Positions 2,408 through 27,263 of a DNA stretch of 27,310 nucleotides are shown here, one piece after another. Made by a program: the position numbers and the translations under genes. Each line of letters opens with the position of its first letter. The stretch's first letter is position 1. The notes beneath the pieces were generated by a model. It was not told the origin of the DNA. It worked only from the letters and a program-made list of their open reading frames with translations, and did no database searches. Source of the DNA: a virus (Duplodnaviria; Heunggongvirae; Uroviricota; Caudoviricetes); the IMG/VR virus record IMGVR_UViG_2778261168_000001; one strand, written 5' to 3'.

Positions 2408-3030
2408 TTTTGAATCACCGTTGTTGCATAAGAATAAATAAAAGGGAGTTTTACATATTTCTGGTCAATGGCATCTTTCAGAAAATAGCCTATACCATCA
2501 CCATATTCTGGTATATGAATAGAAAAAACACTGTCCGATACAGTCACGCTCACATCAAAAGTGTGCTGCAACGGCGGGTCTATTCCGTTTTTTCCATGAA
2601 TGAACCGCGCCACACGGCGCTTTAACCAGTCAATGCAGAAATGCGAACCGTCAGCCTTATAAAAATTCCACGTTAATATTCGTTTGAAATAATCATCAGG
2701 GACATACGATGCCTGCCCCGGAACGTAATTCCGCATTGCTGCGTACGGGATCGTATTGTATTCAATGGTATCGTATGCACCGCGCGCAATAGCCTCCTCT
2801 GAAACCTGTAGTAAAGGTCTTTCAACACCGTAAATACCAAGTGCTATCCAGTCCAGCAACTGCCCGGTTATTGATTCCGATGTCCAGCATGGCAATGCCA
2901 GATTGTTGAGCGAATCGAGGTATTCCTGAGCAATTTCATTGTATGCTTCAAAGAACGCAACAACATTCGGATCATCTCTATACTGCACAAACGGATAAGC
3001 AGGAAGTATTTTCTCAGTCAGATATTGCAT
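2404..3030 (-). CDS. Baseplate/tail protein, P2 gpI / Mu gp48 / YmfQ-like by position
   Basis: Track ORF 2404..3138 begins with TTG. First plausible ATG is at 3030 (MQYLTEKILPAYPF...), overlapping the J-like gene end by 17 nt; an ATG at 3087 is an alternative. Position between J-like and fibre matches P2/Mu/e14 order. Confidence 0.5.
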   Translation of the reverse strand: MQYLTEKILPAYPFVQYRDDPNVVAFFEAYNEIAQEYLDSLNNLALPCWTSESITGQLLDWIALGIYGVERPLLQVSEEAIARGAYDTIEYNTIPYAAMRNYVPGQASYVPDDYFKRILTWNFYKADGSHFCIDWLKRRVARFIHGKNGIDPPLQHTFDVSVTVSDSVFSIHIPEYGDGIGYFLKDAIDQKYVKLPFIYSYATTVIQK

Positions 3031-4240
3031 ACTTATTGACCTGAACCTGTGATGCCACCGTCGAAAAATAGGAATAGGTATCGCCATAAACCAGGCTTGT
3101 GTCTTTTGCCGGAAGAACAATATGGCCGTTAATACCAATGCTCACACTGATTGTTGAGATCAACGTCGCATCAACCAGCAATTTTACGGAGCTGGTAAAA
3201 ATATCCTGGATTCGCAGCAGATTTATCGGGTGACCGACTTCAATAGAATTGATGTAATCAGCAACGTTTTGCTGCACAGCCATAGCAATACCCGCCGGAT
3301 CAACATAATCATCAGACACCGTGTTCCAGGTGATTAGCACCATGACGTTTTGTGATGACGGGATAACGAACGGCACCTGATAAACGTCCGGCGAAACGGT
3401 TATTGAAACCGTGCGTTTTTCCACTGCCGCACCGGATGGATTGCTTACATCGTTGGTCAGTTTCGAAATATCCGGTACAGATTTGTAAATCGCATAAGCC
3501 ACATCATACGGATCACCGCCACCAACAACCGCAACCCATTTCCCCAGCGACGACTGCCGGAAAGAAATCAGGTTTTCTCGCACACCGCTTACTGATTTGA
3601 GCATAGCTTTAAAGCAATCCGGTGTTCCCTGCACACCAAACATGCCGGACTCCATGACTTCGGCGCGGTAAGATGCCCACGTTTGCGCCTCCTGACCGGG
3701 CATTCCTGCGGTAAGGTTGGTGCATTTTACAGGCTGGTCTTTGGGTACTGAGGTAATGACCTGCGTCACGGTCCCTTCCGGTACAGCCCATGAGCCTGAC
3801 GTTGTGGCCACACAGTAGACTGGCTCAGTCTGCCCGTTTTCCGGTACCACGGTATCGCGGGAAACCGCATACTGGTAGTTGCCGTCACCGACAACAAATC
3901 CTTTAGGGATACCAAACCCCGGCAACGCCTCAAACACCACGTATACCGCCGTATTTGTACTTAATCCCTTCTGTGCTCCATATATGTTTCCGAGTTGCAT
4001 CAGTAACGGAATATTCGCGCCGTATGGGCTTACGGAGTTAATAAGGTCCACCCGCGCCTGGTCTATTAATGCCAGCGCCCCGACAGCCGTGCTGGCAAGG
4101 TCTGTAATAAGCCCCGCCGGAAGGTTGGCTGTATATCCAGGTACTTTTTCAGCAACTCTGGTGATAAGATTCGCGAGCAAATCATTGGGTGGCGTAGGCT
4201 GCGCACCCGCACTGGTCATAGTAATTGGTATTTCTGACAT
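3014..4240 (-). CDS. Baseplate J-like protein (P2 gpJ / Mu gp47 family)
   Basis: 408 aa; ATG at 4240 with GGAG RBS 5 nt upstream. Size and position upstream of the gpI-like and fibre genes. Confidence 0.65.
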   Translation of the reverse strand: MSEIPITMTSAGAQPTPPNDLLANLITRVAEKVPGYTANLPAGLITDLASTAVGALALIDQARVDLINSVSPYGANIPLLMQLGNIYGAQKGLSTNTAVYVVFEALPGFGIPKGFVVGDGNYQYAVSRDTVVPENGQTEPVYCVATTSGSWAVPEGTVTQVITSVPKDQPVKCTNLTAGMPGQEAQTWASYRAEVMESGMFGVQGTPDCFKAMLKSVSGVRENLISFRQSSLGKWVAVVGGGDPYDVAYAIYKSVPDISKLTNDVSNPSGAAVEKRTVSITVSPDVYQVPFVIPSSQNVMVLITWNTVSDDYVDPAGIAMAVQQNVADYINSIEVGHPINLLRIQDIFTSSVKLLVDATLISTISVSIGINGHIVLPAKDTSLVYGDTYSYFSTVASQVQVNKYAISD

Positions 4241-4251
4241 ATTTACTCCAT

Positions 4252-4278
4252 AAAAAAACCCGCTTTCGCGGGTTTTTT
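4252..4278. terminator. Bidirectional rho-independent terminator (A7-CCCGC-tttc-GCGGG-T6)
   Basis: Plus 4252..4278 reads aaaaaaacccgctttcgcgggtttttt: perfect 5-bp GC stem extendable by A:T pairs, 4-nt loop, A-run on one side and T-run on the other. Sits 0 nt after the moron stop (4281..4283) and about 10 nt before the J-like RBS. Confidence 0.65.
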
Positions 4279-4280
4279 AC

Positions 4281-5441
4281 TTATTCAACCTCTTCTAAAC
4301 TGCTCACTCTGGACCCTCGGCGGAAATTATCATCATTTTTAACATACTCGTATGAATCCAGAATCAAACCAGATATGCGAAGTATATCTTCCGGATTAGT
4401 TATATGTATCCTTTTACCATCCGTATCAAGTCGAGCTCGTCTTATTTCATTCAACTGAACTTCACTAAGCGAAATAGGTAAAGTTATAAATGAAGATTTT
4501 TTATCATAAAATCTTAACAGCCATCTATTAGTTTTACCATTCAATAGTACACCGAAATATGACTCAGTATCTTTATATTCTATATTATCTTCTGTTTGTA
4601 TGATTTGTTTTACCCTTTCAAATAGCTCCAATTCTTTGGCTGTGGTTATTATGTTGGGGTTTTCTTCATCAACAATGGCGTTATTAACTTGTGTATCCGT
4701 TGCATCATTTTCTTTAGTTTGCTCTACCGGTTGTGTAGATAGCCCGGAAACCACCATTGCGCTAACAGCGCGCTCAACGGCCTGTTTAACTAATGGAGTC
4801 ACGAACTCAAGAAATCTCTGATTAAGTTGTCTCTCAATATTTGAACGACTAGCAACATATCGAACAAACTCCAGATCAACTTCACGAAGACTAGAACTGA
4901 TTGTTTTAGTAAATGAATTCAAATAAACACTTTCTTCAGCCAGTGTCCGTAAAGCCTCTGGTTTGAATTTATCATAACGAAAACGAAATAATTGTGTAAT
5001 ATCGGAGTGAGTTAGAGAATCCATTCTTAATTTTAAAAACGGCGTTGAATCCATTATGTTTTTTTGTTTCAAATCCGTAAAAAAACGCCATTCAACACCA
5101 TTTGTAATGGCTGATATAGTAACTTCCGGTGTTGAATTAAAATATCTTGATAGCTGTGGGCAGTGATTATCAATTTGTTCTGAAAACGATTTCGCCTCAA
5201 TGAACATCACAGGAACATCATGACAAAATAAAGCGTAATCAACCCGTTCATTAGCCTTAACCCCGGGGAAGTCAGCACTATACTCAGCTTTGACTTTTCT
5301 TGGATCATACGGAGTAAAACCAAGAATATCTAGTAATGGCATAATGAGTGCTTGTTTTGTCGTTTCTTCAGTTGTACAAAACACCCCCATTTTTGCAACA
5401 TGCTCTGTGTGTATTTTTAACTTATTTGCAAAATTTTCCAT
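4281..5441 (-). CDS. Moron-encoded protein with N-terminal HsdR-N-like PD-(D/E)xK nuclease domain and a C-terminal domain of unknown function; candidate phage-exclusion protein
   Basis: Track ORF 4281..5456 (391 aa). ATG at 5441 (MENFANKL...) has a GGAGGAG RBS; the ATG at 5456 has none. N-terminus shows TEETTKQALIMPLLDILGF...ERVDYALF...PVMFIEAKSF...ITNGVEWRFF, the motif set of the type I restriction R-subunit N-terminal nuclease domain (compare EcoKI HsdR ...ADYVLF...VVEAK as recalled). Gene is conspicuously AT-rich by eye relative to flanking tail genes. Confidence 0.55.
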   Translation of the reverse strand: MENFANKLKIHTEHVAKMGVFCTTEETTKQALIMPLLDILGFTPYDPRKVKAEYSADFPGVKANERVDYALFCHDVPVMFIEAKSFSEQIDNHCPQLSRYFNSTPEVTISAITNGVEWRFFTDLKQKNIMDSTPFLKLRMDSLTHSDITQLFRFRYDKFKPEALRTLAEESVYLNSFTKTISSSLREVDLEFVRYVASRSNIERQLNQRFLEFVTPLVKQAVERAVSAMVVSGLSTQPVEQTKENDATDTQVNNAIVDEENPNIITTAKELELFERVKQIIQTEDNIEYKDTESYFGVLLNGKTNRWLLRFYDKKSSFITLPISLSEVQLNEIRRARLDTDGKRIHITNPEDILRISGLILDSYEYVKNDDNFRRGSRVSSLEEVE

Positions 5442-5469
5442 GCTTGTCTCCTCCATGGTTACAATCTGT

Positions 5470-5499
5470 ATTTTGCAAATCCGAAATAATATATGTCAA
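5470..5499 (-). promoter_or_regulatory. Candidate sigma70 promoter for the moron gene
   Basis: Minus strand has a perfect -35 TTGACA (5499..5494), an 18-nt spacer, then CAAAAT (5475..5470, 4/6 to TATAAT), about 15 to 30 nt upstream of the candidate starts. A 17-bp AT-rich perfect palindrome lies upstream at 5569..5585. Confidence 0.3.
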
Positions 5500-5590
5500 T
5501 ATGCTCCAGCTTAGAAAATTACTCGCCCCCCTAAAATATCTCTCTACAGCACTCCAAACCAAGGTAAAAGTTTTATCATAAAACTGTGAT

Positions 5591-5938
5591 TCATACCGGC
5601 ACCTGCGTCCGGTAACTGGTCCCATTAAAAAACACAACATCGATGTTATAGGTGGGGTTATCTGCTCCATCTACCTTTGAAATTGCCAATGATGCAAAAT
5701 AGCCGGCAAACTGTTGCTGAACCATGTTCACATAGTAGTCCGGGTAAATCTGCTGCACGATGCACTGCTGCGCAGGAATACCGTAATTCGCGTAAAACGG
5801 CGACTCCCCCAATCCCAGCTTTAACGTCTGAATGAGCGTCGTCAGCCAGCCGTAGGAGAAATCACCGTTGGCGTCAGATTCTACTGCAACCCATTTTTTG
5901 TTGCCGTTCGCGTCGGTGACGCGGCCCCATGTTCTCAT
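5591..5938 (-). CDS. Small baseplate protein, gp25/W-like by position and size (Mu gp46 slot)
   Basis: Track ORF 5591..5971 begins with TTG. ATG at 5938 (MRTWGRV...) has a GGTGAGGG RBS and sits 8 nt after the small upstream ORF stop. 115 aa between spike and J-like genes; family not verified from sequence. Confidence 0.35.
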   Translation of the reverse strand: MRTWGRVTDANGNKKWVAVESDANGDFSYGWLTTLIQTLKLGLGESPFYANYGIPAQQCIVQQIYPDYYVNMVQQQFAGYFASLAISKVDGADNPTYNIDVVFFNGTSYRTQVPV

Positions 5939-5945
5939 CGTGCCC

Positions 5946-6083
5946 TCACCACCATCGGATCTGGCCAACAAAATAACCAGACGCCAGAATCAGAAAGACC
6001 AACCAAATAAGCAAAAACTTCCAGGTGGATAATTTTTCAGCCATAACTCGAATCTCCCGAATCAGTTTGCTAAAATCAAACAC
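5946..6083 (-). CDS. Small hydrophobic single-pass membrane protein (45 aa from GTG, or 32 aa from the internal ATG at 6044)
   Basis: Not in the ORF track (below length cut-off). Minus strand reads AAGGAGAAGTC-GTG...: MFDFSKLIREIRVMAEKLSTWKFLLIWLVFLILASGYFVGQIRWW-stop. Strong SD, hydrophobic core, translationally coupled to the next gene. Confidence 0.35.
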   Translation of the reverse strand: MFDFSKLIREIRVMAEKLSTWKFLLIWLVFLILASGYFVGQIRWW

Positions 6084-6112
6084 GACTTCTCCTTGCCTTA
6101 TTCAAGGTCAGA

Positions 6113-6147
6113 AACAAAAAGCCCCGACTGCTGCAACAGTTCGGGGC
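6113..6147 (-). terminator. Rho-independent terminator on the minus strand, downstream of the spike gene
   Basis: Minus strand reads GCCCCGAACTGTTGCAGCAGTCGGGGC followed by TTTTTGTTTC: about 10-bp GC-rich stem with one bulge, then a T5 run. Confidence 0.5.
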
Positions 6148-6188
6148 TTTCGCTTTATGGATAGAATTTAAAGTGAAATAAACTGGTA

Positions 6189-18701: not shown

Positions 18702-19515
18702 GTTTGCCCTTCTCCGTTAAAAATTCGTCGGGTAGTTTCTGAGGGGCGTAGATCGGCAGTGCATCGCAACTGCAATAAACCTCCTCCCCGGCAGCAGTGA
18801 TTTCGTCATAAAAACCATATACGGGCTTAATCAGCCCCTGCTCCAGCGCCCACGAATCGCGGAGGAGATAAATTTTCTCGTCGCGCTCTTTGTGGTCCTG
18901 TCGGTATTTGTAGCCCGGACGCCGCCAGTTCGAATGCCAGCGCAGAGCAATCGCACCACTCTGAACAGCCAGCAGATACTTAACGTTGCTTGCCAGCTTA
19001 TGCCCCTGGTCAATTGCCACCCGGCGACTGATAAAATCCATATCCTTCACGGACTTCTGAAAACTGGACTTCACTTCCCGGCGATCAATTTCGCTCACCC
19101 CGTCAGGCGGAATGGACGTAACCCACCCCTGAAAACGCTGTATGGTTTTCTCGATGGCCTGTTCTCGGTTGAGTTTTATCAGGTTGGCACTGGCGAAAAT
19201 TCGCCTGTCGAGTTCCTTGCGAAACTCAGGTTTCAGTTTTTCAACAGTGATTTTTTTAGGGCCGTCAGGAGGCTGATCCCGTAATGCCCCGCCGTCGATG
19301 ACAAGACGGCTGTAGATAGCGGTGAGATGTTTTCTGGCTACGGTATCATCAGGGGTTTCTCGCTGAGCGGCTACACGGAGTTTCCGGCACCATTGGAGCA
19401 ATGATTTTTCGCTATCCCACCCGTGATTTACGTAGTAGTTAACGGCATCCGTCAGAACCTCATACAGCGTCCTGATCCGTCTCTTCCTCCTCCCCGCCCG
19501 GCTGGAAATTGCCAT
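18682..19515 (-). CDS. Head morphogenesis / minor head protein (Mu F / SPP1 gp7-like by position)
   Basis: Track start 19653 is TTG. ATG at 19515 (MAISSRAGRRKRR..) has an AGGAG RBS 7 nt upstream and overlaps the portal 3' end by 56 nt. Immediately follows the portal gene. Confidence 0.45.
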   Translation of the reverse strand: MAISSRAGRRKRRIRTLYEVLTDAVNYYVNHGWDSEKSLLQWCRKLRVAAQRETPDDTVARKHLTAIYSRLVIDGGALRDQPPDGPKKITVEKLKPEFRKELDRRIFASANLIKLNREQAIEKTIQRFQGWVTSIPPDGVSEIDRREVKSSFQKSVKDMDFISRRVAIDQGHKLASNVKYLLAVQSGAIALRWHSNWRRPGYKYRQDHKERDEKIYLLRDSWALEQGLIKPVYGFYDEITAAGEEVYCSCDALPIYAPQKLPDEFLTEKGKREFNRA

Positions 19516-20896
19516 CAGGCGTCTCCTGCTTCGGTGGTTCATAATTCGCCAGCGCGTCCACATCAATGATGAGTGGAGCTTCGCCATAGGTTTGCGTGGC
19601 ATTAACAAGGCTTGCCAGCCATTCAGTGACGGCGGCACGGTTTTCAGGATCAACCTGTGGCGACACGGCCGAGAAAAGTGCTATCGCCTGTTGAATCACT
19701 TTACTGTCGCTTTCCCGGCGTTTGTCCGGCGACTCCTCCACCAGCTCCTGCCACGTCGCGGTAAATTCACGTCGCCACTGGTAAAACGTGGTTTTATAGT
19801 CGTCGGTTATGATGTCCGGGTAATCATTTTTCAGCGACTGATAAAATTCCTCGTTCCAGGCGATGTACTGCACCAGGCGTTCGAAATAATCCATCACAGG
19901 TTCAATCTGCTGGCGTACACCATCGATATACTGGCTGACGGCTTTCGAATCTTCGGTCCCCTCACCGAAACCATTCGAAAAGGCTTCCTCTTTAATGAGG
20001 ATCGCCGGAACGTCACTCCCTGACGCAATATCGGAAATAATATTGTCGCGTGCAGCGTTTAGCGCACCATCGATGTTTTGTAGATTCAGCGAGGTAACGT
20101 CCTCATCCTTCCCGATACTAAGTACACCTTTATTTTTTGCCTCTTTGACGTTTTCCCTTTTTCGTCCCGTGGCGGCAGCCATGATCCCGTCAAGTTTCGA
20201 ACCATACTGCACAACTTTAGCTACCAGTACGCCCGCCTTCTGGCTGACGAGATCATTAGCCTCCATTGTGTTGATATAGGATTTCAGGGAATAAAGAACG
20301 CGCTGAAACACACTTCGTCCGGTGAATCCGAACGATGAACTCTGAAACTCCAGATAAATCGGTGTGCCGTTGAAGATTTTCAGTGTGCGTGACGGATGCC
20401 AGTCTTTTCCGCCAATCTTCAGCTTTTTATTGGCTTCCTGGAAAAACGGACTGTTTGGGTTCTGGTCAGTCACCATCGAACCGGAAGCGTTCAACGGATC
20501 CCACGCGTTGATATACACATCCTCTTCTGTCAGTCCGAACGTCGGAAGCGGTTCACGACATGAAACACTGTCGGTGCCCACGCCGATCGCTGCAGCACCG
20601 TAGCAACGAGACAGAAAAAACAGATTTTTAATCTTCTCGTTAACCTTCATACGTTCCCATACCTCCTGAAAACGCCGCACAACCCGCTCGTCAGGGTCTG
20701 TCTCCACGTTGTACTGGCGCGGCTTACACATCGCCATCAGTATGGGTTTTTCGACAAGTTTCCCGCCCAGCGGGTGGTACTGCCACAGCAGTTTACACAG
20801 TTCATAGCCAATGTCTGTTCCCGGCTGAATTTCTTCAGCCTCAAGAATGCGCATCAGCGAAGAACTGAGATTTACAGAAATCTCGATCTCAGCCAT
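19460..20896 (-). CDS. Portal protein
   Basis: 478 aa; ATG at 20896, 18 nt after the terminase stop; acidic C-terminal tail (..GGEEEETDQDAV). Position and size. Confidence 0.65.
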   Translation of the reverse strand: MAEIEISVNLSSSLMRILEAEEIQPGTDIGYELCKLLWQYHPLGGKLVEKPILMAMCKPRQYNVETDPDERVVRRFQEVWERMKVNEKIKNLFFLSRCYGAAAIGVGTDSVSCREPLPTFGLTEEDVYINAWDPLNASGSMVTDQNPNSPFFQEANKKLKIGGKDWHPSRTLKIFNGTPIYLEFQSSSFGFTGRSVFQRVLYSLKSYINTMEANDLVSQKAGVLVAKVVQYGSKLDGIMAAATGRKRENVKEAKNKGVLSIGKDEDVTSLNLQNIDGALNAARDNIISDIASGSDVPAILIKEEAFSNGFGEGTEDSKAVSQYIDGVRQQIEPVMDYFERLVQYIAWNEEFYQSLKNDYPDIITDDYKTTFYQWRREFTATWQELVEESPDKRRESDSKVIQQAIALFSAVSPQVDPENRAAVTEWLASLVNATQTYGEAPLIIDVDALANYEPPKQETPDGNFQPGGEEEETDQDAV

Positions 20897-25371: not shown

Positions 25372-26829
25372 TTAGGAGCGCCAAAAAAAACCTGAAAACA
25401 ATATAATAACAGGATAAATTTCAAGGCGACCAAGAATCATAGCTATGCACATTAAACATTTTGCAATGTCATTAAGCACTCCGAATGACGATGCAGTAGC
25501 CCCAAAACCTAATCCCATATTATTAATACATGCAGCCACTGTTGCAAATGATGTAAGAAAATCATATCCCATACCATTTAACACCAGTATAAAAAACACC
25601 GTGAAGAGAGTATAAAGAAAAAAGAAACTCCATACAGACCTCATTACACGATCTGTAACTATCTTCCCTCCTACATTTACACTCAACAACGCTCTGGGAT
25701 GAGAAAGCTGATTTATCTCGTGTTTGCTTTGTTTGAAAAGTATAAGAAATCGAAGTGACTTAATTCCACCACAAGTTGAACCTATACATCCCCCAAAGAA
25801 ACTTGACAACAGCAAAAACACTATCGTGTGCGTGGGCCAACTTGCATAATCCTGCGTAGCTAAACCATTATCAGTGAGCATGGAGCTGGCAAGAAAAAAC
25901 GAATGAATAAAACTTCCATGCAAGTCATACATACCTATATGCCAGACCTGGAAAGAGGTAACAATGATCACCCCTAAGGCTATTAACAGAAAGAAACGAA
26001 GTTCAATATCTCTGATTAAAGGTTTTATCGTTTTCCTGCTAATAACAATATACCAAAGAGTGAAGTTGAAAGCCGATAGCAGGGAAAAAGAACCAGCCAC
26101 CAGCTCAACCAAATAGTTATTAAAATATCCGATACTCTCGCTATGAGTTGAGAAACCACCAAGCGAAACTGTGGAAATCCCGTGACAAATAGCATCAAAC
26201 AAAGGCATTCCTGCAAGTCTATAACAGACAATACAAGCAATACCTAATAAAGAATAAGTTATCCACAGTGTCCGTGACGTATCGGCCAGGCGGGGAGTGA
26301 GTTTGTCATCCTTAAATGGCCCCGGCATTTCTGACTGATAAAGCTTTGCACCACCAATACCCAATAATGGCAATACAGCAACCGCCAGAACAATAACTCC
26401 TAAACCACCTATAAAATTTAACTGTGACCGATAGTACAAATATGCCCGAGGTAATGAACTAACATCATCAATTACAGTTGCTCCTGTTGTTGTTATTCCA
26501 GAAACCCCTTCAAACAGAGCATCAATGAACGTTAAATTAAGTTCTGAGTCAATCCATAAAGGGAATGCACTAATAACAGAAAACAAAATCCAAAACATTA
26601 CAATTATAATAAACCCATCACGGGTACGTAATTGAATGCCAGATTTCTTAGTTGTATACCACGCTCCGCCACCAATGCAAAAAAATATAACGAAAGTTAT
26701 AAAGAAAACGAACAGGCTTTTTTCTTTATAAAACAATGCTACAACCATTGGTGGCAACATTGAAAGACTATAGAGCCAAACCAGGAACCCACACATATGA
26801 GTAACAACTCTTACATGAGATGTATTCAT
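25372..26829 (-). CDS. trkG: TrkG/TrkH-family potassium uptake transporter (prophage cargo)
   Basis: 485 aa from ATG at 26829 (MNTSHVRVV..); the track's 491-aa version starts at TTG 26847, which has an AAGGTGG SD. Multiple membrane helices with the reiterated glycine-containing pore motifs of TrkH/KtrB (FCIGGGAWY, TTGATV, NFIGGLGV, STVSLGGFS, GGCIGSTCGG, INNMGLGFGAT). Gene is visibly AT-rich. Rz/Rz1-trkG is the Rac prophage arrangement as I recall it. Confidence 0.85.
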   Translation of the reverse strand: MNTSHVRVVTHMCGFLVWLYSLSMLPPMVVALFYKEKSLFVFFITFVIFFCIGGGAWYTTKKSGIQLRTRDGFIIIVMFWILFSVISAFPLWIDSELNLTFIDALFEGVSGITTTGATVIDDVSSLPRAYLYYRSQLNFIGGLGVIVLAVAVLPLLGIGGAKLYQSEMPGPFKDDKLTPRLADTSRTLWITYSLLGIACIVCYRLAGMPLFDAICHGISTVSLGGFSTHSESIGYFNNYLVELVAGSFSLLSAFNFTLWYIVISRKTIKPLIRDIELRFFLLIALGVIIVTSFQVWHIGMYDLHGSFIHSFFLASSMLTDNGLATQDYASWPTHTIVFLLLSSFFGGCIGSTCGGIKSLRFLILFKQSKHEINQLSHPRALLSVNVGGKIVTDRVMRSVWSFFFLYTLFTVFFILVLNGMGYDFLTSFATVAACINNMGLGFGATASSFGVLNDIAKCLMCIAMILGRLEIYPVIILFSGFFWRS

Positions 26830-26846
26830 ATCTAAATATTCTTTCA

Positions 26847-26900
26847 ATTATAACCACCTTGCTGCAATATTATGATTATACTGTATAAAATTTAACTCCT
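26847..26900 (-). promoter_or_regulatory. AT-rich upstream region of trkG with two perfect TATAAT hexamers (candidate promoter)
   Basis: Minus-strand TATAAT at 26880..26875 and 26852..26847; no convincing -35 found. Confidence 0.25.
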
Positions 26901-26966
26901 CTTAGATCTTACTTCACTGTTCCTTATGAAACAATCATCAAAATGAATCATATTGTAGTTAAGATT

Positions 26967-27263
26967 TTACTTTAAACACTGCTCGGTTATGTATTGCTGA
27001 GCACCTTCAAGTTGGGCCTGCATCATTACCAGTCGTTCCCGGAGGGTGAAATAATCCCGTTCAGCGGTGTCTGCCAGTCGGGGGGAGGCTGCATTATCCA
27101 CGCCGGAGGCGGTGGTGGCTTCACGCACTGACTGACAGACTGCTTTGATGTGCAACCGACGACGACCAGCGGCAACATCATCACGCAGAGCATCATTTTC
27201 AGCTTTCGCATCAGCTAACTCCTTCGTGTATTTTGATCCTACCCACGTAATATGGACACAGGC
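26967..27263 (-). pseudogene. rzpR: Rz-like i-spanin gene fragment (C-terminal part only; N-terminal membrane anchor missing)
   Basis: Translation ...KYTKELADAKAENDALRDDVAAGRRRLHIKAVCQSVREATTASGVDNAASPRLADTAERDYFTLRERLVMMQAQLEGAQQYITEQC matches the lambda Rz C-terminal two-thirds as recalled. The frame hits an in-frame TAG at 27266..27264, and the residues upstream of KYTKEL diverge from Rz. Confidence 0.55.
27026..27211 (-). CDS. rzoR: Rz1-like o-spanin outer-membrane lipoprotein
   Basis: 61 aa, ATG at 27211: MRKLKMMLCVMMLPLVVVGCTSKQ... with lipobox LVVVGC and a proline-rich segment (KPPPPPAWIMQPPPDWQTP), embedded in the +1 frame of the Rz-like ORF. Near-identical to lambda Rz1 as recalled. 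Confidence 0.8.
   Translation of the reverse strand: MRKLKMMLCVMMLPLVVVGCTSKQSVSQCVKPPPPPAWIMQPPPDWQTPLNGIISPSGNDW

Follow-up and report, generated by a model that had tools for sequence, protein, structure and literature searches.

Exclusion genes that are linked to the repressor and expressed in the lysogen are represented by lambda rexAB, Rac sieB and bstA of Salmonella BTP1; of these, RexAB and BstA are prophage abortive-infection genes. A solitary HsdR-like protein on a mobile element is suggested by the name of the DefenseFinder system 'FS_HsdR_like', which is reportedly encoded by phage-inducible chromosomal islands (Fillol-Salom et al. 2022 is the source named for it); it may or may not be identical with the family treated here. 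The subject of this contribution is one gene of the IMG/VR record IMGVR_UViG_2778261168_000001, a stretch of 27,310 nucleotides of Caudoviricetes DNA (the entire stretch is referred to as the window) that originates from a Rac-family prophage of the Rac-SA53 type, ~46 kb in length and integrated at ttcA in E. coli. The gene is located in an AT-rich cassette between two genes of the tail cluster. We lean towards the view that this moron gene codes for a standalone, motor-less HsdR-type PD-(D/E)xK endonuclease that is made in the lysogen and whose most likely role is defence against the DNA of superinfecting phages. A related function, phage exclusion by a standalone nuclease, had been proposed in an earlier note on the same DNA.

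Architecture of the nuclease protein

The gene and the parts of its product are listed here; residue numbers refer to the 391-residue reading frame and are lower by 5 in the 386-residue protein.

4281..5441, minus strand: nuclease gene, 386 amino acids, stop codon included (open reading frame, RefSeq start, ribosome-binding site)
5013..5375, minus strand: PD-(D/E)xK nuclease core, residues 28-148 (Pfam HSDR_N / HSDR_N_2)
5367-5369, minus strand: helix acid E30
5142..5240, minus strand: catalytic block with D73 (5238-5240), E87 (5196-5198), K89 (5190-5192), Q101 (5154-5156) and Y105 (5142-5144)
4722..5012, minus strand: helical connector, residues 149-245
4674..4721, minus strand: acidic disordered linker, residues 246-261 (predicted local distance difference test, pLDDT, <50 for residues 246-256)
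4323..4673, minus strand: C-terminal alpha/beta 'double-wing' domain, residues 262-378, a putative target-selection or sensor module

A longer in-frame reading of 391 residues is possible from the ATG at 5456 (4281..5456, minus strand), and both lengths of this single open reading frame had been stated before. The ATG at 5441 is almost certainly the true start because GGAGGA is located 8 nt upstream of it, because PGAP/RefSeq places the start of WP_000426903.1 at this codon and because the 78-85% variants of the gene start at the equivalent ATG.

Two Pfam families match the N-terminal part of the protein, HSDR_N (PF04313; E = 5.6e-14, 52.9 bits at a gathering cut-off of 25.1) and HSDR_N_2 (PF13588; E = 2.4e-09, 37.7 bits at a cut-off of 25). 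Pfam gave nothing beyond these two matches (residues 30-133), and a helicase or ATPase domain was not found. The protein matches phrog_4225 'endonuclease' over its full length (1e-148), and NCBIfam gave no more than one local match, to a model of a type I endonuclease and below the threshold. In an alignment of 100 sequences that extends down to ~27% identity, E30, D73, K89, Y105 and G120 are invariant and E87 and Q101 are conserved to 99%, and the complete E...D...ExK...QxxxY set of the HsdR/RecB-like class of PD-(D/E)xK nucleases is present. An AlphaFold2 model computed on this alignment (pLDDT 92.2) has its best fold matches in the nuclease domains of HsdR, DrdV and BpuSI. When solved structures were searched by sequence, the single protein gave matches at chance level and the family profile gave none, the HsdR entries of the PDB included. 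The motifs quoted in the earlier note as those of an HsdR-N-like domain are found in the translation, and its domain assignment is borne out by Pfam, by the conserved catalytic residues and by the fold. We assume that the N-terminal domain is a catalytically competent nuclease.

Neither hsdM nor hsdS is annotated in the prophage or beside the homologues examined, and no methyltransferase or specificity gene is annotated in the whole ~46-kb prophage. With no motor domain found by Pfam and no M or S partner annotated in the prophage, the conclusion that the gene does not belong to a restriction-modification system holds.

The predicted model assigns a 'double-wing' fold of the YdhG/YjbR/MotA-CTD-like type to the C-terminal domain, with a YdhG-like structure as best match; its conserved residues are T271, T272, E275, D296, Y300 and R315. 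The preceding linker is acidic and varies in length from 0 to 69 residues across the family. A profile of the C-terminal domain retrieved fragments of the same nuclease family alone, some of which carry the name 'predicted type IV restriction endonuclease' in one source, and the idea of a swappable sensor used by other effectors was rejected on this result. Separately, we observed a few family members in which the HSDR_N nuclease and the connector are kept and an unrelated C-terminal segment replaces the 'TTxEEL...YKDT...W..R' double-wing domain, which suggests that the C-terminal module may occasionally be swapped within the family.

Linkage of the family to lysogeny repressors

The nuclease belongs to a large family with 3,356 cluster representatives at 50% identity in an exhaustive search, 290 of them below 1e-30 and most of them 340-420 residues long. 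The labels given to it so far are generic and computational ('type I restriction endonuclease', phrog_4225 'endonuclease', 'predicted type IV restriction endonuclease'). Lambdoid phages of the Shiga toxin (Stx) type hold close variants (78-85%) of the gene next to their Q antiterminator, a second slot for morons. Outside this Q slot and the slot of the window between its J-like and W-like genes (J/W slot), most copies are located immediately downstream of a prophage lysogeny repressor and on the same strand, as in the following loci.

Citrobacter Rac-like prophages: gene 22 bp after a repressor with HTH_3 and Peptidase_S24 domains
Providencia: gene 9 bp after the repressor
Salmonella Mu-like prophage: gene downstream of the repressor
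E. coli PCN061: gene after racR
E. coli STEC384: gene after a helix-turn-helix (HTH) repressor
Klebsiella phage KpF5: gene after a Rac-type repressor
S. pneumoniae phage IPP25: repressor, hypothetical gene, nuclease gene and integrase in this order
Clostridium phage: gene after HTH regulators
Distant members (~33% identity): gene adjoining HTH/S24 and a serine integrase, or ImmR/ImmA

Relatives are encoded on 210 viral contigs of IMG/VR. In a tally made there from a 13-sequence alignment, which is biased towards Enterobacterales and redundant (21 loci share one identical RacR-type neighbour), the upstream neighbour is on the same strand in 52 of the 54 loci that differ from the window type and have an upstream gene, and about 51 of these 54 neighbours are probably repressors as judged by size and sequence. 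The upstream repressors are of four unrelated architectures, namely HTH_3+S24, RacR-type, short HTH_3/CI-type and Arc-like, which were assigned by Pfam for eight representative neighbour types and from the record annotation for the RacR type. A position downstream of the repressor is the classic place for exclusion genes expressed in the lysogen, and the linkage across phyla therefore appears to strengthen the phage-exclusion idea; exclusion itself is what we infer from it.

The protein is 85.5% identical in its residues to the Q-slot variant and 63% of the fourfold-degenerate sites differ between the two genes. These direct counts were used since synonymous sites are saturated for an NG86 estimate of dN/dS, and they argue for strong purifying selection on a functional protein. 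Any copy of the family is present in 33 of 5,426 E. coli genomes and the family is found on 50 of 72,556 plasmids, from diverse phyla; on a mobile element, one copy has toxin-antitoxin and ANT genes around it. A divergent E. coli copy (~72% nucleotide identity; NZ_OZ547461.1, 4421873-4423354) is split by an insertion of IS1A.

A cassette in a variable slot of the tail cluster

The cassette, its flanks and the corresponding slots of two relatives are as follows.

4242..5590, no strand: variable cassette (moron) between the J-like start codon and the W-like stop codon, defined by the break in homology and low G+C content (GC)
3014..4240, minus strand: J-like baseplate gene, downstream flank (Pfam Baseplate_J, 9.6e-08)
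5591..5938, minus strand: 'W-like' gene of the structural cluster, upstream flank, 115 amino acids (phrog_7986, unknown function)
Rac-SA53 slot (L001, 4263-6131), opposite strand to the tail genes: two hypothetical genes and an Ant antirepressor
pPE4 slot (L002, 4263-5318), opposite strand to the tail genes: one hypothetical gene and an anti-repressor

A baseplate hub gene is also located upstream of the cassette. Morons are recognised by an atypical base composition and by their presence or absence at one junction among close relatives. The GC of positions 4250-5590 is 0.357 as compared to 0.488 for the remaining window, and a windowed calculation identified this segment as the lowest in GC of all 1,341-bp windows across the 27 kb (z = -3.9), so that its AT-rich character, described earlier by eye, is confirmed. 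At third codon positions the GC of the nuclease gene (GC3) is 0.258, and it ranges from 0.49 to 0.61 in the flanking structural genes. The second most AT-rich stretch is located at about 25640-26980 (GC 0.372), which by coordinates corresponds to the lysis region of an annotated relative (M15 peptidase, two holins and a DUF3927 gene).

Rac-SA53 and phage vB_Apl-pPE4 have flanks that are 96-97% identical to those of the window and carry other cargo in the J/W slot. Comparison with these two homologues defined the edges of the cassette: homology stops a few bases past the J start codon (about 4242-4250) and restarts exactly at the W-like stop codon (5591). Alignment of the slot edges places the ribosome-binding site of the J-like gene (GGAG, 4246-4249) inside cassette-derived sequence. 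A survey of 5,426 complete E. coli genomes yielded 94 with the J/W region, and in 25 of these the nuclease gene is present with 99.3-99.9% identity. Among the matches listed, the other genomes have, at the same exact junctions, Ant/AntB cassettes of ~0.9-2.7 kb, to which LprI-family, Rha and hypothetical genes may be added. Among the related phages and genomes compared no empty J/W slot was seen, which argues for an exchange of cassettes in a hotspot and not for a simple insertion. The comparison shows that other cargo of a variable slot has given way to the cassette, with the W-like stop and the J start codons as exact limits. The previous description of a moron inserted between two baseplate genes was thus right in its edges and in the variable carriage, and has to be changed with respect to the event, which was a swap of cargo. 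Of the two labels given to the flanks, J-like is supported by Pfam; the W-like protein (96-97% identical in Rac-SA53 and pPE4) had no match in a Pfam search and belongs to a PHROG of unknown function.

An Ant/AntB antirepressor occupies the J/W slot in most relatives; it may be accompanied by a secreted, lysozyme-inhibitor-like protein of the LprI family, by Rha regulators and by hypothetical genes, and this cargo is oriented against the tail genes. This content makes it an immI-like secondary immunity region within the tail cluster, and since antirepressor-type cargo is its usual content, the nuclease cassette took the place of an immunity-type module.

Predicted expression signals of the cassette

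Three elements of the minus strand surround the gene.

5449..5454, minus strand: ribosome-binding site GGAGGA, 8 nt before the ATG at 5441, read from the sequence
5470..5499, minus strand: promoter-like element, TTGACA (5499-5494), 18-nt spacer, CAAAAT (5475-5470)
4252..4278, minus strand: intrinsic-terminator-like hairpin between the nuclease stop codon and the ribosome-binding site of J (A5-CCCGCG-AAAG-CGCGGG-U7)

The strong ribosome-binding site and the perfect TTGACA had both been pointed out in the earlier note and were found as described. With a consensus match at 10 of 12 positions, TTGACA-18-CAAAAT is the best putative promoter of the region. A promoter-like pair is retained in the Q-slot cassettes as TTGACG-17-GAAAAT at the same distance to the ATG, so that both stand-alone slots share TTGAC(A/G)-17/18-(C/G)AAAAT with unrelated sequence outside of it. 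It is missing where the nuclease gene is located 6-21 bp behind an S24-type repressor gene, and only the ribosome-binding site is present there. An own promoter-like element therefore appears to be kept solely where the gene lies outside a repressor operon.

When the minus strand of 4238-4290 was folded, a G+C-rich stem of 11 bp formed, with a run of A on one side and a run of U on the other (-15.8 kcal/mol, z = -4.4). None of 200 shuffled sequences folded equally well; the terminator proposed directly after the stop codon is well supported by this result. The hairpin is symmetric and thus potentially bidirectional. In contrast to the folding result, a terminator scan listed none in the region; an Rfam scan of the whole window found no known RNA family. 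The hairpin is not common to the Q-slot cassettes.

Mechanistic model and alternative explanations

The following sequence of events could account for a defence function. The promoter-like element of the cassette would drive transcription during lysogeny, and the hairpin would end the nuclease transcript before J and so shield the tail operon; in lytic growth, antiterminated late transcription would cross the hairpin. The N-terminal domain presumably cuts DNA by means of E30, D73, E87-x-K89 and Q101-x3-Y105. In an enzyme without a translocase, the choice of the target or the activation is most likely a matter of the helical connector and the C-terminal double-wing domain on its flexible acidic linker. 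Since no methyltransferase is present, host and prophage DNA would be spared for the reason that the recognised feature is absent from self DNA. Such a feature could be a modification of phage DNA (type IV-like), a phage-specific DNA structure or a trigger made by the phage (abortive-infection-like).

Several observations weigh against this model. The -10-like hexamer is weak (CAAAAT), and the gene is co-oriented with the tail genes, so this copy is possibly expressed late in infection alone. Adjacency to a repressor tells when a gene is expressed and not what it does, and some copies, for example that of Gilliamella, stand alone amid housekeeping genes. In net charge the C-terminal domain ranges from acidic to neutral (-6 in this protein, -1.3 as the median of the family), and no more than five basic positions are conserved in it. 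The YdhG-like structure that it matches best is no proven DNA binder, and the fold differs from those of known modified-base readers; support for a role of this domain in DNA binding or targeting is accordingly weak. No family of PADLOC-DB v2.0.0 matched at E <= 1, which leaves the nuclease without a tie to a validated defence family and agrees with the earlier statement that it represents no named system. A functional study of the nuclease was not found in the literature on HsdR-like proteins, morons, exclusion and prophage defence, and the protein is not mentioned in the DefensePredictor paper with its supplements or in the domain-centric discovery paper.

Among the alternatives, a toxin-type nuclease of abortive infection survives best, and we regard it as rather unlikely. 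The C-terminal domain and the linker would autoinhibit the enzyme in the lysogen until a phage protein or another infection cue, sensed by the C-terminal domain, triggers indiscriminate DNA degradation and cell death. A single protein that combines a nuclease with a separate small domain on a flexible linker would suit such a switch, as would an acidic C-terminal domain that is no known reader of DNA modification, and the repressor-linked position is the same as that of known prophage abortive-infection genes. However, no trigger or partner is conserved alongside the gene, the downstream neighbours vary, and the lytic cycle of the prophage itself must be completed with the protein present. The sequence holds nothing to separate this possibility from direct restriction.

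It appears improbable that the nuclease serves the lysogeny-related biology of the phage itself, be it the processing of DNA at induction or excision, recombination, or degradation of the DNA of host or competitor. Many phage lineages have the gene in tight linkage with the lysogeny modules repressor and integrase, which would be in line with such a role, and PHROGs files phrog_4225 under 'DNA, RNA and nucleotide metabolism'. The gene is dispensable, however: the sister phages with 96-97% identity do without it and only few E. coli genomes hold any copy. Four unrelated repressor architectures upstream of it argue for shared timing rather than for a mechanistic partnership, and members of the family are found on plasmids and, as a lone gene, in a chromosome as well.

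An orphan type II-like restriction enzyme with a protective methyltransferase encoded elsewhere in the phage or the host is very improbable. Methyltransferase genes are indeed located within a few kb of the nuclease gene in an Stx2 phage, the Salmonella Mu-like phage, PCN061, STEC384 and KpF5, but they are of different families and either differ from the nuclease gene in strand or belong to early lytic operons, and phages of these kinds often have them anyway. A methyltransferase partner as a requirement was rejected, as none is annotated in this prophage and none is adjacent in the Citrobacter, Providencia and Gilliamella loci. The intergenic location with exact boundaries between conserved structural genes and the near-identical copies in 25 genomes would fit a selfish homing endonuclease, free-standing and spread by cleavage of relatives that lack the cassette. 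This reading is hardly credible and was rejected on genomic context, given that relatives have unrelated cargo in the same slot with no empty target site seen and that the usual home is a repressor operon and no recurrent target gene. The family is moreover of ancient origin and, across phyla, subject to strong purifying selection, and HSDR_N is not known to be one of the recognised homing-endonuclease families.

We thus prefer a defence nuclease of the lysogen. As a more far-reaching and tentative proposal, for which we see a reasonable but lesser chance, the gene could be the E. coli member of a pan-bacterial, as yet unnamed family of single-protein defence systems, which would be maintained in the lysogeny modules of temperate phages from many phyla. 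In such a system a double-wing domain new to immunity would direct or switch a detached HsdR-type nuclease, and invading phage DNA would be discriminated without a methyltransferase. If this were true, a very widespread family would gain a function: its members would act in the lysogen as restriction factors that need no methyltransferase and are encoded next to the repressors of temperate phages from Proteobacteria to Firmicutes. The defence catalogue would gain one further single-gene system, the HsdR nuclease module would offer a clean case of re-use outside type I systems, and the double-wing domain would be a new candidate sensor or targeting fold. Prophage annotation would also profit, since the linkage of repressor and nuclease would help to find immunity regions. 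The gain would be incremental and not conceptual because nuclease-based prophage defences are already a well-populated category; what is unusual among these is the combination of a detached HsdR nuclease with a double-wing domain.

Further observations on the window and its relatives

Phage pPE4 (PP818812.1, 'Actinobacillus phage vB_Apl-pPE4') was deposited with Actinobacillus pleuropneumoniae as host, and its baseplate region is 96.5% identical to E. coli Rac-type prophages. We consider this host doubtful; the phage may stem from an induced E. coli strain.

A small hydrophobic open reading frame of 45 residues (5949..6083, minus strand; MFDFSKLIREIRVMAEKLSTWKFLLIWLVFLILASGYFVGQIRWW) belongs to phrog_6632 (unknown function) and is a homologue of rac58. 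It is located between the V-like and W-like genes (5946-6150), where a terminator-like hairpin at about 6115-6150 is followed by a good ribosome-binding site and this reading frame. A 193-bp stretch of this region (5946-6138) matches ~870 E. coli genomes and ~39 Stx-converting phages with ~84% identity and is mostly unannotated there. The region 5946-6150 may be a second, tiny moron for a membrane peptide common to unrelated phage types.

The gene for a protein of 478 residues at 19460-20896 (minus strand) has the RefSeq label 'anti-CBASS protein Acb1 family protein'. By Pfam its product is a phage portal protein (Phage_portal_3, 1.8e-13), and it adjoins the terminase genes; the Acb1 label looks like an annotation artefact.

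Comparison with known systems

The nearest kin of the N-terminal nuclease domain are the type I HsdR subunits (EcoR124I, PDB 2w00; HsdR fragment 3h1t). In contrast to these, the nuclease of 386 residues has neither the superfamily 2 (SF2) translocase nor the C-terminal helical domain, is without HsdM and HsdS partners and does not qualify as a type I enzyme; the sequence similarity is too low for the family profile to match any HsdR in the PDB. The type IIG/IIL enzymes (DrdV, 7lo5; BpuSI, 3s1s; the MmeI family) have a similar module of nuclease and connector, with a similarity that is limited to the nuclease and the adjacent residues. Those enzymes continue into a fused methyltransferase and a target-recognition domain, whereas here a disordered linker and the small double-wing domain follow.

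The type IV enzymes (Mrr, prophage-encoded GmrSD) are alike in being solitary nucleases without a cognate methyltransferase on a mobile element. They differ in that a recognised modified-base reader (SRA, EVE/YTH/ASCH, winged-helix) is not seen in the present protein, the C-terminal domain of which is YdhG/YjbR/MotA-CTD-like, and there is no sequence relationship to the type IV families in PADLOC. Shedu (SduA, DUF4263) is likewise a single-protein PD-(D/E)xK defence nuclease, but belongs to a different Pfam family, has the opposite order of domains and gave no PADLOC match here. The same genomic logic as in the nuclease family is found in lambda rexAB, Rac sieB and Salmonella BTP1 bstA, in that the family members are located on the same strand directly downstream of the lysogeny repressor. 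The proteins themselves are unrelated, and the copy of the window differs from all of these in its place, a tail-cluster slot away from the repressor, where it is equipped with a promoter-like element of its own.

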